Assembly (NCBI GenBank): GCA_964583675.1
Contig: CAZOVH010000002.1
Coordinates: 2,602-66,601 of the forward strand
Origin: an uncultured Candidatus Saccharibacteria bacterium
GTDB lineage: Bacteria; Patescibacteriota; Saccharimonadia; CAILAD01; GCA-016700035
DNA length: 64,000 bases
Reading direction: 5' to 3'
Part shown: piece by piece, positions 129 through 5,678 of the stretch
Position numbering within the stretch: the stretch's first letter is position 1
Layout: the number at the start of each line of letters is the position of its first letter
The notes under the pieces: generated by a model
What the model was told of the DNA's origin: nothing
Database searches by the model: none
Seen by the model: the letters and a program-made list of their open reading frames with translations, nothing else
Translations under genes and position numbers: made by a program

Positions 129-329
129 ATGAAAGACTATAAGGCAAATAAAAGAGTATGGGGAAGGATGTTTCTAGCCTTCTTGATAGTTCATATAATT
201 TTGCTATTTGGATTCAAAATTAGCACTGGAATTACTGAACTTATGATAATTATTAGCGGTATTATGTGGGCTATCAACGCTGTAAAAGCGAAAAGTAGTG
301 AAAAGCGGCAGTCAAATACTAAGGCCTAA
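129..329 (+). CDS. hypothetical small membrane protein (66 aa, one to two predicted TM helices)
   Basis: ORF with hydrophobic core FLAFLIVHIILLFGF and IIISGIMWAI; no recognisable family. Confidence 0.3.
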   Translation: MKDYKANKRVWGRMFLAFLIVHIILLFGFKISTGITELMIIISGIMWAINAVKAKSSEKRQSNTKA

Positions 330-359: not shown

Positions 360-956
360 TTAACTGCAATTTGCCTTTGCGATATTCGCATTCTTTGTAG
401 CTAGAAGTTGGGCGAGATTATTCTGATGTGTGGAATTTTCATATCCTTCTTCGTTTGCCCTATAACTCGAATCGCATAAGCCCCTACCACAATAGTATCC
501 TGCGATCCTTTGCATTTCTTTTTCATGGCGCGCATTTTCTTGTGCAACTGCTGCATTATAGCTATCAATATATGCTTGCTTTAAAGCCTCATTACAGCTT
601 GGGCCACTATTTGAAGCGCTAGATGAAGGAACCTGACTCTGGGTTGTGCTCTTTGGCGAGTTATTCTTATTTGTTTGAGGAGAAGATGCTGCTGGGCTGG
701 GACTTTCAGAGTTACTGGCGGTGGTGCTAGGAGATGCCAGGGGTGAAGCTGTGGTAGATTGTGAGGTTTCTACGGGTGTCGGCTTGTCATTATTTTTTGT
801 GGCGACTTTATTTGCATAGGCAAATCCTCCGATAGCGATAGCTATACCTAGTGTCAAGCCAACTAGCAGTTGAGCTTGTCCTTTGACTGCGGATAGGACC
901 TTAGCTTTCTTGCCGGCACTGTCAGGTTTTTGGACCGGTAGCTTATTCTCATTCAT
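360..956 (-). CDS. hypothetical membrane-anchored protein with Ser/Thr/Pro-rich low-complexity linker and Cys-containing C-terminal domain
   Basis: N-terminal TM segment LLVGLTLGIAIAIGGFAY followed by long S/T/P-rich region; no family recognised. Confidence 0.45.
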   Translation of the reverse strand: MNENKLPVQKPDSAGKKAKVLSAVKGQAQLLVGLTLGIAIAIGGFAYANKVATKNNDKPTPVETSQSTTASPLASPSTTASNSESPSPAASSPQTNKNNSPKSTTQSQVPSSSASNSGPSCNEALKQAYIDSYNAAVAQENARHEKEMQRIAGYYCGRGLCDSSYRANEEGYENSTHQNNLAQLLATKNANIAKANCS

Positions 957-1483: not shown

Positions 1484-1770
1484 GTTGCTCTCGTAGAGAG
1501 CCAGAACTCCGAAGGAGTTCGCTAAAGTCTCATACGAGATTTTATACAAAGTATTCTCCGTGGGATCACCATGAAAAACGTCCAAGCTCGTCTTGGGCTT
1601 TTTTCATGGTAGTTTTCTCGTGAAAACTGGACTCCGCAGGAGTTCGATAGATCAGTCCACGCACAGGAACTTGTTCCGAGCATGGCCGCAATCTGCACTC
1701 AGTATTCTCCGTGAGATCACCCATGTAAGCGCCGGAAATTAATTCCGACTCTCACATCGGAGAATACTTA
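1484..1770. repeat. tandem diverged repeat (two ~90-125 nt units) built of three hairpins plus conserved AGTATTCTCCGTGRGATCACC(C)ATG box; closing inverted copy CGGAGAATACT
   Basis: Units 1487-1573 and 1610-1725 align; stems differ in sequence but both copies stay perfectly palindromic (GCTCTC/GAGAGC vs GTTTTC/GAAAAC; ACTCCgaaGGAGT vs ACTCCgcaGGAGT). Confidence 0.55.
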
Positions 1771-1777
1771 ATTAAAT

Positions 1778-1820
1778 GAAAAAGACCCCGGTGCCGGACC
1801 CCCGAAGGGGTCCGGTCCGT
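1778..1820 (-). terminator. GC-rich rho-independent terminator for the 1832..2158 gene
   Basis: Minus-strand hairpin CCGGACCCC-TTCG-GGGGTCCGG followed by T-run (AAAAAG on plus strand). Confidence 0.6.
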
Positions 1821-1831
1821 TGGTCGTGGCG

Positions 1832-2158
1832 TCAGCCGAGGCGGCGTTCGCCGTTGACGCTCACAAAGCGGATGTCACCTGAGTGACCTCCGTTCACACC
1901 GATCCGCTCTCCCAACTGGAAGATGCGATCGACGCGAGTGCTCATCACATCGGCGGTGATCTGGCCGAACTTGCGGCTGTTGGTCATCACCGAGACGCCG
2001 ATGATCTGCGACTCGGTCGCCCGGCGCCCCTTGGCGAGGACGAATGTCCAACGCGAGCTCTTGGTGCTGACGGTGATGACATCCCCGTCCTCGAGCGTGC
2101 CGAGGTCGAGCATGGTTGCATTCCGGTTGCCCGGAGCCATGGATGTTTGGGTACTCAT
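1832..2158 (-). CDS. hypothetical protein encoded in GC-rich, GC3-biased insert (likely horizontally acquired)
   Basis: Codons almost all end in G/C (CTC GAC CTC GGC ACG...), unlike flanking genes; own terminator; no family recognised. Confidence 0.5.
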   Translation of the reverse strand: MSTQTSMAPGNRNATMLDLGTLEDGDVITVSTKSSRWTFVLAKGRRATESQIIGVSVMTNSRKFGQITADVMSTRVDRIFQLGERIGVNGGHSGDIRFVSVNGERRLG

Positions 2159-2179
2159 TGGAGCTCCTTGTCCAATATA

Positions 2180-2198
2180 ATACCGATCGGATCGGTAT
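2180..2198. promoter_or_regulatory. perfect 19-bp palindrome ATACCGATC-G-GATCGGTAT between divergent genes (putative operator)
   Basis: Read directly; centred in the 128-bp divergent intergenic region. Confidence 0.5.
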
Positions 2199-2286
2199 CT
2201 ACCTCTGCCGTGTGCAAAGATAAGTGTTATTATAGCACTATTATAGATTTATGTCAATCATTATATAATTGCCAAATCTATATTTT

Positions 2287-2701
2287 TATGATTAAATATG
2301 CAGTATTCAATCTCGACAGACGGAGAAGCACCTTGTACGCGATGCATGATGAAGTCGAACTCTTGGTGGTGGTGATGGATTCCACGGCACCGGAAGAGAT
2401 GGTCGAAAAGATGCTCTGTGAATTCAGGTTCGTTCGAAAAATCGACATCACAAAGATCCTGGAGAAAGTCGAGAAGAAGCTCCTTCCGCAACTTGAGCGG
2501 GGGAGAGTTGGCCTCCTAACCCAGATTCAACTCAGCATCGCCATGAGGAAGGCAGTGCACCAGACGACCGGCTTCATACAGGACGTTGGCGAGAAAACAC
2601 GCGTAATCGTCATTGCGCCGCCCTACATCGACCGAATGAGTCTTGGGGTGAACCTCACAATGACGTGCAAGAAACACATAACGGTGATTGGCAAGAGCTA
2701 A
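2287..2701 (+). CDS. hypothetical protein (138 aa) divergent from 1832..2158
   Basis: ATG at 2287 after AT-rich promoter region; followed by terminator hairpin; no family recognised. Confidence 0.5.
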
Positions 2702-2708
2702 TGATCAC

Positions 2709-2737
2709 CCCGGCTTTTACCAGCCGGCTTTTTATTT
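2709..2737 (+). terminator. rho-independent terminator (CCGGCT-tttacc-AGCCGG-CTTTTTATTT)
   Basis: Hairpin plus T-run directly after stop of 2287..2701. Confidence 0.6.
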
Positions 2738-3610
2738 ACTAGCAGCTTTTACGCACTTTGCGCAGGTCGCTGTGTCGGCACAGTTCTCACACACCAACAC
2801 TAAATCGTTACAGCTCACGTTATCGCAGTTAATGTAACGACTGGTTTTGTCACCGCAGTGACTACATTCACCAATATCGACAGACTTATCGCTAAAACGT
2901 TGTTCCATACGACCGTCAAAAATGTAAAGTGAACCTTCCCAGGCGCCCTCATCACCGTATTTTTCACCGTATTTTACAATACCGCCATCAATTTGATATA
3001 CCTCATTGAAACCACGATTTTTCATGAGTGCTGAAAGAATTTCGCAACGCACGCCACCTGTGCAATAGGTGACAACTGGTTTATCCTTAAGCTCATCATA
3101 CTTATTTGACTCAATTTCTTTAACAAAATCGTGCGTGGTGCGAGTCTTTGGCACAACAGCGTCGCGAAACCGACCAACCGCTGCTTCATACGCATTGCGG
3201 CCATCAAAAAAGACCACGTCATCGCCACGCTCCTCGAGCAACTTATGCAGCGCCTCGGGCTTGAGATGCTTGCCACTACCAATAACACCTTGCGCGTCCA
3301 CCTGAACTTCCTCAGGCACGCCAAAAGCCACCAGCTCTGACTTTACCTTCACGCTAAGACGAGGGAACTCATTACCGCCACCCTCACTCCATTTGTACGT
3401 AATGCCACGAAATATCGCTGAGCGGTTCATCTCGCGCTTGTATTCTTTGAGGTTCTCTAAATCTCCGCCGAGAGTACCGTTGATGCCATGCTTACTCACG
3501 ATAATTCGACCCTTAAGGTTCAAACGACGACACAGCTCACGCTGCCAACGCATCGCCATCGTTGGGTCTTGAACCGGCACAAATTTATAGTAAAGTATGA
3601 CTTTTTTCAT
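2732..3610 (-). CDS. trhO: tRNA uridine(34) hydroxylase / rhodanese-related sulfurtransferase (UPF0176, YceA/TrhO family)
   Basis: Rhodanese-like core with CTGGVRCE active-site Cys and C-terminal Cys cluster; start taken at MKKVILYY, the upstream ORF extension looks spurious. Confidence 0.8.
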   Translation of the reverse strand: MKKVILYYKFVPVQDPTMAMRWQRELCRRLNLKGRIIVSKHGINGTLGGDLENLKEYKREMNRSAIFRGITYKWSEGGGNEFPRLSVKVKSELVAFGVPEEVQVDAQGVIGSGKHLKPEALHKLLEERGDDVVFFDGRNAYEAAVGRFRDAVVPKTRTTHDFVKEIESNKYDELKDKPVVTYCTGGVRCEILSALMKNRGFNEVYQIDGGIVKYGEKYGDEGAWEGSLYIFDGRMEQRFSDKSVDIGECSHCGDKTSRYINCDNVSCNDLVLVCENCADTATCAKCVKAASK

Positions 3611-4386: not shown

Positions 4387-4953
4387 CTAGTCGGAGCTCG
4401 GGTGGGGGAACCGACAATGCCAACCAAAGGCATCATGGATGCGTTCGATATTCCGGTCTACCACGCTCGATGAGAACCCACGCTCTGTCCAGCTCTGAAT
4501 GCAGGCATTCGCGGCAACCTGACACAGCAGACTGCCGTCCTCAACCCTAAGGGAGAGCACGCCAATCGCGTCTAGAAAAACAGCGTCGGCCAACTCTGTG
4601 ACGAGTGTCTCTTGCGCCTGTTTCCACGCACGCATACTATCAAGCCGCGATCCACTGATCCCTTCAGGAGAGAAGGCTTGCTGGATATGCTCAAGCATTT
4701 TGCGCCGCAACATTGGAATTCCGTGCAGGATGCACAATTCTGCCATCAAATAGCAGGTACTGCAGAGCTGAGTAGTGTCGTGTCGTGCCAGTTCGGTCTC
4801 TGGTACTCGTCGATGGAACCAGTTTCGCCAACCCGTACTCCCGAACGCTACAAGATGCGCATCGAAATCTGGATACTGCTCCCTGGGGTATTTCTCTTCC
4901 AGCTGTGCCCGGGCGGCATGCGGCGTTATCAAAGTGCTCTCGGTCTGAGTCAT
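4387..4953 (-). CDS. hypothetical protein in second GC-richer segment
   Basis: 188-aa ORF, elevated GC vs neighbours, His/Cys-rich; family not recognised. Confidence 0.45.
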   Translation of the reverse strand: MTQTESTLITPHAARAQLEEKYPREQYPDFDAHLVAFGSTGWRNWFHRRVPETELARHDTTQLCSTCYLMAELCILHGIPMLRRKMLEHIQQAFSPEGISGSRLDSMRAWKQAQETLVTELADAVFLDAIGVLSLRVEDGSLLCQVAANACIQSWTERGFSSSVVDRNIERIHDAFGWHCRFPHPSSD

Positions 4954-5015: not shown

Positions 5016-5678
5016 TTAGTCGACGTCTGTCATCTCGCGCAATTTCGCCAAATTTATTTCAAACCCAGATTTGTGGTTACGAAATAGGCCAGATTTTGCA
5101 GGCTTGAGTACGCCACGCTTAGTCAGCTGACGCACCTGAACCGTCATTGTCTCGCGAGTGGTTCCAACCATACTGGCAAGCTGGGCGTGCGAAAGTGTGA
5201 AGGGGAGCGTAACTGTGCCCTCGGAAAGCTCCTGTCCGAAGCGCTGCACCAAAAGGGCGAGCATATTTATTAATTTCACATCCGCCTTGGCCTGCAAAAT
5301 ATTATCGAGCGTCTGTGCTAGCTCATCATTGCGCGTCATAAGGTAGCGCACCAAGCCGAAGAGCGCGGCCGAATCTTTTTCTAACTGCTTCTCGAGCGAT
5401 TTTGCTTCTAAGATTCGCACTTTGCCATCAGTCATAGCTTCGTAATAATACCTGTGGGTAACATCATTAAATAACGCGGCCTCCAAATTCATCACATCGC
5501 CAGGCCCAAGGATGGTAATCAATTTCTCATCACCATCGTCGGCAATGGTGTAGGTCTTCACAAAACCATCAGTAATAAAGAGAACATCCTCACCGGCTTC
5601 GCCCTGATGCAGCAGAACATCAGTACGTTTGTATTCTTGCTCGGGCTGATTCATAAAAAACGCGCGCATGTGCTTCAT
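5016..5678 (-). CDS. Crp/Fnr family transcriptional regulator
   Basis: cNMP-binding beta-roll region plus C-terminal HTH (SHAQLASMVGTTRETMTVQVRQL). Confidence 0.8.
   Translation of the reverse strand: MKHMRAFFMNQPEQEYKRTDVLLHQGEAGEDVLFITDGFVKTYTIADDGDEKLITILGPGDVMNLEAALFNDVTHRYYYEAMTDGKVRILEAKSLEKQLEKDSAALFGLVRYLMTRNDELAQTLDNILQAKADVKLINMLALLVQRFGQELSEGTVTLPFTLSHAQLASMVGTTRETMTVQVRQLTKRGVLKPAKSGLFRNHKSGFEINLAKLREMTDVD

Follow-up and report, generated by a model that had tools for sequence, protein, structure and literature searches.

An orphan gene from Candidatus Saccharibacteria with a predicted structured leader and a persistent third-position GC bias

Structured leaders in the 5′ untranslated regions (5′-UTRs) of bacterial messengers can gate translation. 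They include the autoregulatory leaders of ribosomal-protein genes, RNA thermometers and stabilizing 5′ hairpins such as the ompA leader. Phage morons are compact units of another kind, in which a promoter, a gene and a terminator form an autonomous block of deviant GC content within a prophage. Here we describe a locus that shares features with both. It lies in a 64-kb stretch of DNA (hereafter the window; contig CAZOVH010000002.1) from an uncultured Candidatus Saccharibacteria bacterium, and it comprises a small orphan gene on the minus strand, gene A, and its divergent neighbor, gene B. Saccharibacteria and other Patescibacteria have tiny genomes that are full of unannotated genes. To our knowledge almost nothing is known about the regulation of expression in Patescibacteria, and few cis-regulatory RNAs have been characterized in the phylum.

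Our favored reading, to which we assign a probability of roughly 0.6, is that A is a self-contained Saccharibacteria unit with a structured leader and a persistent bias of its coding sequence (CDS), and that a palindrome upstream of A is the second hairpin (P2) of that leader. The likeness to structured 5′-UTR leaders lies in the predicted position between promoter and start codon, the restriction to the sense strand, the covarying hairpins, the placement of the last hairpin at the ribosome-binding site and the association with one gene family. The A leader differs from classic thermometers that sequester the Shine-Dalgarno (SD) sequence, as its predicted fold exposes the SD in a loop and pairs the AUG, and its middle stem is optional. 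Like a moron, A has its own strong promoter, an intrinsic terminator and a deviant composition, and it sits beside an integration hotspot. Unlike a moron, it lies outside any prophage or element, occupies the same locus in relatives that lack the neighboring element and has no phage homologues. The locus is a concrete case of an orphan small-protein family that combines a promoter signal unmatched in strength across the 64 kb, a covarying leader outside Rfam and a third-position GC bias confined to the CDS. Our literature searches found no description of the A family or its leader. The orphan family is new, its leader motif is a candidate for a new one, and its codon bias is persistent.

The leader of gene A and the 19-bp palindrome

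The predicted features of the A unit are as follows, with loci of relatives and homologues designated below by L numbers.

1832..2158, minus strand: gene A, encoding a 108-amino-acid (aa) all-beta, weakly SH3-like orphan protein (from the list of open reading frames (ORFs), composition, ratio of nonsynonymous to synonymous substitution rates (dN/dS), homologues and AlphaFold)
2229..2257, minus strand: promoter of A, TTGACA (2257..2252), 17 nt, TG-n-TATAAT (2234..2229) (from a scan)
2200..2222, minus strand: leader hairpin P1, UAUCUUUGC-ACACG-GCAGAGGUA, at the predicted 5′ end of the transcript
2179..2199, minus strand: leader hairpin P2, the palindrome, with a 9-bp stem and a 3-nt loop in RNA
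2156..2177, minus strand: leader hairpin P3, UAUUGGA / UCCAAUG, with an 8-nt loop that holds the SD and a 3′ arm that pairs the AUG (2158..2156)
2164..2169, minus strand: Shine-Dalgarno sequence AAGGAG of A, in the loop of P3 (from sequence and fold)
1776..1826, minus strand: terminator of A, a nested GC-rich hairpin CCGGACCCC-UUCG-GGGGUCCGG (1794..1815) inside an outer stem, then a U run (from a scan and the whole-mRNA fold)

The promoter of A scores 12/12, with an extended −10 element; neither strand of the window has another perfect TTGACA-N16-18-TATAAT. Near-consensus equivalents were found upstream of A homologues. Folding of the leader, which is about 64 nt long, gives the hairpins P1, P2 and P3 (z = −3.96), and the motif is unique in the window. 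P1 includes G·U pairs, which exist on the sense strand only. The same three-hairpin architecture appears in separate folds of 9–10 of 12 leaders from divergent loci. P3 has a free energy of −4.6 to −9.4 kcal/mol, and its sequence CAUUGG...GGAG...CCAAUG is conserved family-wide.

The palindrome (ATACCGATC-G-GATCGGTAT, 2180..2198) was described in the initial annotation as a 19-bp operator at the center of a 128-bp AT-rich spacer between A and B. The palindrome itself is real. Its arms are a perfect 9 bp around a 1-bp center, and zero matches are expected in shuffles. The spacer measures 129 bp and is centered on 2223, which places the palindrome off-center. It lies 31–49 bp downstream of the −10 box of A, at about +24..+42 of the predicted transcript, and 22–40 nt upstream of the A ATG. 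We find it very unlikely that this is a DNA operator through which a dimeric regulator controls divergent A and B promoters in an autoregulated module. The perfect arms are beyond chance and stand in a divergent intergenic region, and the window clade shares a conserved core, CGATCCGATCG, with the more distant lineage L021/L025. However, the palindrome is downstream of the A promoter and about 90 bp from the B ATG, and no helix-turn-helix (HTH), ribbon-helix-helix (RHH) or other DNA-binding model, nor any toxin, antitoxin or defense model, matches A or B. A is predicted to be all-beta and B alpha/beta. The two genes are divergent and do not form an operon, and B is absent beside A homologues outside the clade.

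The arms also change in the way that a stem in RNA would. Between the window and L021 (arms CCCUCGAUC/GAUCGAGGG), AUAC/GUAU becomes CCCU/AGGG, so that the change is compensated. Different and unrelated stems occupy the P2 place in L022 (AUCUGUUAG/CUGACAGAU), L024 (CUCUCGG/CCGAGAG) and L016. The stem is missing in L014 and L026, which makes it optional, and L005-type relatives carry two mismatches in the palindrome arms. Most likely, judging from these comparisons, the palindrome is one predicted hairpin of a conserved mRNA leader rather than an operator in the DNA that serves both A and B.

A covariance model trained on six close leaders detected those of L022 (E-value 6.5e−7) and L014. A rebuilt model found those of L016 (E-value 0.002), L024 (3.9e−7) and L026 (9.3e−8). 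Five leaders outside the first training set were recovered in this way, and every match immediately precedes an A homologue. When the filters were switched off, a covariance search of 90 kb gave eight matches in eight loci and none other at E ≤ 0.01. In an alignment fitted to the model and made up of just eight sequences from about seven lineages, 97.1% of cells are paired, vs. 30–46% with slid partners, and 17 of 25 pairs have changed on both sides (P1 9/9, P2 7/9), a count that 0 of 500 shuffles reach. A search of Rfam 15 with the minus strand of 2153..2228 gave no match at the gathering score or at E ≤ 10, and a permissive threshold returned only noise.

Two other roles for P2 were considered and set aside. 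An attenuator-terminator was rejected, as no U run follows P2 in L021. Avoidance of GATC or CGATCG does not account for the palindrome either, the counts of these words being near expectation.

The GC-rich terminator reported in the initial annotation is confirmed, at about 1776..1826. Its 35-nt core is identical in L004, L005, L011 and L021 and occurs once in the window, and a metagenome scan with this core led to a single contig, L025. The predicted whole transcript of A folds into a far more stable structure than shuffled sequences do (z = −5.37); for the CDS on its own the margin is smaller (z = −2.33). We think it very doubtful that the GC-rich CDS is kept because the mRNA itself is structural or regulatory, e.g., a dual-function RNA or an unusually stable message. 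The two z values and the persistent, CDS-specific GC excess described below would fit such a role. Yet the z of the CDS is modest. GC at third codon positions (GC3) is far above that at first and second positions, and C is preferred over G, both of which point to a constraint at the level of codons rather than of pairing. The lack of an Rfam match likewise speaks against it.

The following course of expression is proposed for the self-contained unit. A consensus sigma-70 promoter would give a monocistronic transcript with the leader of about 64 nt and three hairpins, the GC3-rich CDS and a strong intrinsic terminator. P1, at the 5′ end, and then P2 would jointly stabilize the A mRNA. P3 would keep the SD in its loop and pair the start codon, so that initiation of translation would depend on the opening of P3. 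The opener could be a bound factor, possibly the A protein itself, or temperature. If the leader is regulatory, it adds a new class of cis-regulatory RNA for the phylum, and the A protein is probably abundant. A more far-reaching idea, which we put forward as unlikely but worth stating, is that the leader is a new cis-regulatory RNA class specific to Saccharibacteria (Patescibacteria) that controls a highly expressed, lineage-restricted small beta-barrel protein. The synonymous sites of A would then experience unusually strong selection, specific to this gene, for G/C-ending and mainly C-ending codons, which would make the choice of codons itself a part of the regulation. One possibility is that the codons couple the translation of A to a particular tRNA or to the physiological state of the epibiont on its host.

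Codon bias of gene A and the question of transfer

The initial annotation set A and B against an AT-rich background. The window is in fact moderate in composition (46.1% GC, GC3 about 0.45). The anomaly of the two genes is real nonetheless. Gene A has 61.8% GC, with 0.55, 0.50 and 0.81 at first, second and third codon positions, respectively. The highest-GC 330-bp stretch of the 64 kb falls within it (0.645 vs. a mean of 0.461, standard deviation 0.044). Gene B has 50% GC and a GC3 of 0.67. GC at four-fold degenerate sites (GC4) is 0.80 in A and 0.71 in B, which rank first and second among the 69 ORFs of the window; the value pooled over 14 long background ORFs is 0.48. At pyrimidine-ending (Y-ending) codons, C/(C+T) is 0.79 in A and 0.68 in B, and the next of the 69 ORFs reaches 0.57. 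The codon usage of A resembles that of a high-GC organism (ATC 7/7, CTC 5/6, CGC 7/11, GTC/GTG 10/10). Its amino acid make-up is only slightly GC-shifted, with a glycine, alanine, arginine and proline (GARP) fraction of 0.28 vs. 0.24. A and B thus deviate from host composition as a horizontally acquired gene would.

The bias is shared by the relatives. Their gene order is rhodanese/UPF0176, B, A, tRNA-Glu(CTC), nrdAB, with rhodanese-B-A-(tRNA-Glu) kept by each of the L001, L005 and L004/L011 lineages. The locus of A and B and their composition do not differ among four related lineages, and in every close syntenic relative GC3 is 0.82–0.86 in A and 0.62–0.69 in B. In L021/L025 the A orthologue is at the syntenic spot with an identical terminator and a GC3 of 0.80–0.84, depending on the start codon. 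It is 50% identical to the A protein of the window, whereas the flanking proteins are 70–80% identical to their counterparts, so A evolves faster than its flanks. DNA was also recovered for eight further homologues (25–50% identity). Their contexts are unrelated and include the interval from rnc to rpsP on a 690-kb contig, the upstream side of bipA, a place next to tRNA-Glu in the opposite orientation and a gap flanked by two tRNA-Ser genes. The contigs of all nine distinct distant loci examined have 44–52% GC.

Across 11 distinct lineages, A homologues stand above their flanking genes in GC3 in nine. Values are 0.76 vs. about 0.50 in L016, 0.72 vs. about 0.55 in L026, 0.78 in L017, and 0.82 for the called ORF (0.75 from an upstream ATG) vs. 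about 0.44 in L024. L022 is weak (0.48 vs. about 0.39), L014 is only slightly above its neighbors, and L019 is level with its own. In 12 loci, the 110 nt upstream of the gene, which hold the promoter and the leader, have 33–45% GC and the CDS has 47–65%. The GC excess therefore begins at the ATG.

At four-fold sites of shared codons, the A gene of the window is 46% identical to L021 and 54% identical to L024, with about 38% expected from base frequencies. The fraction of C at these sites is 0.53–0.56 in all three. These sites have in large part turned over, and the composition was kept. A bias that persists in orthologues with near-randomized synonymous sites would be a maintained property of the family, not the fading imprint of a recent actinobacterial transfer. 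The GC3 of A may be upheld by selection or by biased conversion against AT-biased mutation.

Two sources of the bias were tried and rejected. One is translational selection: ribosomal-protein genes of the window are low in GC4 (0.27–0.37), and so the bias of A is not the ordinary expression-linked bias of this genome. The other involves queuosine and NAC codons and was suggested by a tgt gene 6 kb away; the bias at NAC codons is weaker than at other Y-ending codons.

The initial annotation had found transfer from an actinobacterial host attractive. In this reading the A-B block would have been acquired recently or a moderate time ago, with GC3 as the mutational signature of the donor. We hold this to be quite unlikely. 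In its favor are the high-GC-like codon usage, the rank of A and B as the strongest compositional outliers and the position of the block about 260 nt from a tRNA-Glu integration hotspot. The terminal-branch changes at third positions are mostly GC to AT, and the divergent neighbor of A in L021/L025 is a surface protein gene of 64% GC with an LAVTG sorting signal. We did not find an actinobacterial homologue of A or B among 5.8 billion protein clusters and 1.84 billion representative proteins, nor any homologue outside contigs of 44–52% GC in the same collections. Phage and plasmid collections yielded no homologues of A or B (tblastn). The family is small: nine close clusters among the 5.8 billion and just 37 distant members in a profile search of the 1.84 billion, nearly all of 94–149 aa and none with a source name beyond 'hypothetical protein'. 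A scan of the GTDB species representatives for A found a single locus, in an 'uncultured Candidatus Saccharibacteria bacterium' whose genome has 82% DNA identity to the window over a syntenic block. The guess in the initial annotation that the organism is an epibiont is borne out by this match. Wherever its members can be placed by these comparisons, the A family appears to belong to Saccharibacteria. A locus and composition common to relatives was the outcome that the annotation had named as telling against transfer, and it was seen in all relatives found. The halt of the GC excess at the ATG, the family-wide conservation of the AT-rich promoter and leader and the barely shifted amino acid make-up also count against a foreign donor. 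An old foreign origin of A is conceivable. For screens of horizontal gene transfer, the locus is a caution: a gene of outlying composition in the genome of an epibiont does not have to derive from the host.

The divergent neighbor in L021/L025 is of interest in its own right (L025 2183–2932, plus strand; L021 4876–5625, minus strand). It encodes a secreted protein of 249 aa (64% GC, GC3 0.80) whose linker is rich in Thr. An LAVTG signal near the C terminus precedes a hydrophobic tail and basic residues. The protein resembles a class E sortase substrate and is itself a candidate for foreign origin.

The unrelated contexts of the homologues raise another prospect, namely a moron-like mobile expression cassette. 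A would come from an unsampled GC-rich pool, circulate among Saccharibacteria and insert at various sites, often beside tRNA genes. The promoter and terminator of its own, the composition unlike that of the flanks, the variety of contexts (rnc/rpsP, bipA, tRNA-Glu in two orientations, the tRNA-Ser pair) and the faster evolution of A would all suit a cassette. However, no recombinase, repeat or target-site duplication surrounds it. The A unit is beyond the edge of the integrated element and is vertically stable in four syntenic lineages. Phage and plasmid homologues are absent, and we found no A paralogues in the window or the other loci, except for one marginal match in L017. On balance we regard a cassette as unlikely. 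As a separate observation, a PIF1/AAA_30/UvrD_C_2 helicase of about 390 aa lies 0.1–2.5 kb from the A homologue in two unrelated lineages (L014 6456–7631 and L024 3732–4901). This may be coincidence or weak linkage.

Several points weigh against the self-contained unit that we favor. Terminal-branch changes at third positions run 13 from GC to AT and 1 from AT to GC. Mutation biased toward AT and countered by a force that acts over longer times would fit this pattern, and taken alone the pattern fits the slow decay of a foreign gene as well. The transcription start of A is placed from the promoter, and the covariation comes from the small, model-fitted alignment described above. P3 is conserved in sequence and does not covary, and it could equally be a site of recognition by a protein or the ribosome. 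L021 and the window clade have the center of the palindrome, CGATCCGATCG, in common, and any palindrome is also a possible DNA site. Finally, most of the distant A homologues are on contigs without an established taxonomy.

The A and B proteins and their pairing

Gene B and the hairpin that follows it are listed here.

2288..2701, plus strand: gene B, a 137-aa alpha/beta orphan with a GC3 of 0.67, in this clade only
2710..2737, plus strand: terminator-like hairpin after B, CCGGCT-TTTACC-AGCCGG and a T run (from a scan)

Both genes are real and under purifying selection. Compared with three related lineages, dN/dS is 0.35–0.42 for A and 0.14–0.21 for B, with differences mostly at third codon positions. 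The AAGGAG before A is suitably spaced from the start codon. The initial annotation left both proteins unassigned and this still holds: neither A nor B has a family match in Pfam, PHROGs, PADLOC or NCBIfam, and neither family has a significant match in PDB sequence profiles. AlphaFold models of the two were built from shallow alignments. The model of A is all-beta, with a predicted local distance difference test (pLDDT) score of 68, and that of B is alpha/beta and poor (pLDDT 56).

A may be a small all-beta protein that is weakly SH3-like. The best SH3 match is to SH3_3 (E-value 0.022), below the Pfam threshold and in 1 of 36 family members. Otherwise the likeness arises indirectly, via repeat proteins. 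A lacks both a signal peptide and a catalytic partner domain, which sets it apart from bacterial SH3 (SH3b) and other small beta-barrel domains. Its second half resembles G5 repeats only through weak matches that are amplified by the repeats. In L011 (7547–7939), the gene call of a public NCBI metagenome-assembled genome includes the leader RNA in the translation and so lengthens the A orthologue to 130 aa, probably because its start codon was mis-annotated.

For B, the poor model gives only a weak fold lead toward RsfS or a minimal nucleotidyltransferase (Pol-beta-like). Neither RsfS nor NTP_transf models of Pfam match B. With regard to the G[SG]...DxD motif of nucleotidyltransferases, B has an acidic strand, DEVELLVVV, but lacks a G[SG] before it. 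The initial annotation put B at 2287..2701; the end stands and the start moves to 2288. That start is ambiguous. The ATG at 2288 has no SD, a TTG at 2333 has GGAG 7 nt upstream, and an ATG at 2342 is also possible. Gene callers picked differing starts in relatives. We did not see a convincing promoter or SD before the ATG at 2288. The hairpin at 2710..2737 shares sequence with the 3′ end of the rhodanese/UPF0176 gene, which is convergent with B and has its stop at 2732.

The layout of the pair had suggested a toxin-antitoxin-like or regulator-plus-effector module. A and B do resemble a type II toxin-antitoxin system, being two small unannotated genes beside a palindrome and close to mobile DNA. 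They differ from one in that they are divergent, do not co-occur outside one clade and carry neither a toxin nor an antitoxin domain, and the palindrome falls in a predicted transcribed leader. B has five relatives among the 5.8 billion clusters, and its profile matches the close clade only. A homologues outside the clade have other neighbors and B is next to none of them. The idea of a two-gene module was not upheld. B looks, on sequence grounds, like a clade-specific neighbor with a milder version of the bias of A, and we found no support for a tie between its regulation and the palindrome.

The tRNA-Glu hotspot and nearby observations

The downstream side of A borders an integration hotspot with these features.

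1550..1572, plus strand: 3′-end fragment of tRNA-Glu(CTC), right junction (attR-like), GTATTCTCCGTGGGATCACCA (from the alignment of junctions)
1701..1724, plus strand: second, degenerate copy of the tRNA-Glu 3′ end, AGTATTCTCCGTGAGATCACCC, also in L001
964..1308: element gene, DUF5681
360..956: element gene, a 198-aa Ser/Thr-rich membrane protein
129..329: element gene, a 66-aa holin-like ORF

An integrated element fills the window from 1 to about 1553, in the 3′ end of tRNA-Glu(CTC), and A and B are outside it. The window begins to resemble L001, a relative without the insert, at 1553, so the boundary lies roughly 280 nt beyond the 3′ end of A. An intact tRNA-Glu is at this spot in L001 and L005, and in L011 it is at the far end of an element. 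A and B are present in relatives without the element. The element at this site in L011 (1763–7500) is a different one of 5.7 kb that encodes a large serine recombinase of 510 aa; the observation also takes in the relatives L004/L012.

The second tRNA-Glu copy is probably the scar of an older integration. Duplicated T-arm-like pieces, ACTCCGNAGGAGTTCG, occur at 1506–1524 and 1631–1649, and L005 has a related scar, GGAGAATACTTTGTAT. Together with the tRNA-Glu copies, these pieces look like the leftovers of earlier integration and excision at the hotspot. Directly after the tRNA fragment is a 19-nt inverted repeat, ACCATGAAAAACGTCCAAG / CTTGGGCTTTTTTCATGGT (1568–1610), that resembles a terminator in either direction. 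The 59 nt that cover this repeat (1563–1621) are 97% identical to a site (5602–5660) in the different element of L011.

Further along the window, a 188-aa orphan ORF (4387–4953, minus strand) has a raised GC3 of 0.60, which makes three variable genes of unusual composition in the 3 kb about A. Searches of Pfam, NCBIfam and PADLOC gave no match for it. It is found in the L001 and L005 lineages and is absent from L004/L011, where the Crp and Pirin genes abut. Outside the window, upstream of nrdA and the ribonucleotide reductase operon, L001 (8900–9080) and L005 (6840–7000) each have two close copies of ACGCTATATATAGTGT-like palindromes. Judged by the NrdR consensus, these look like NrdR boxes.

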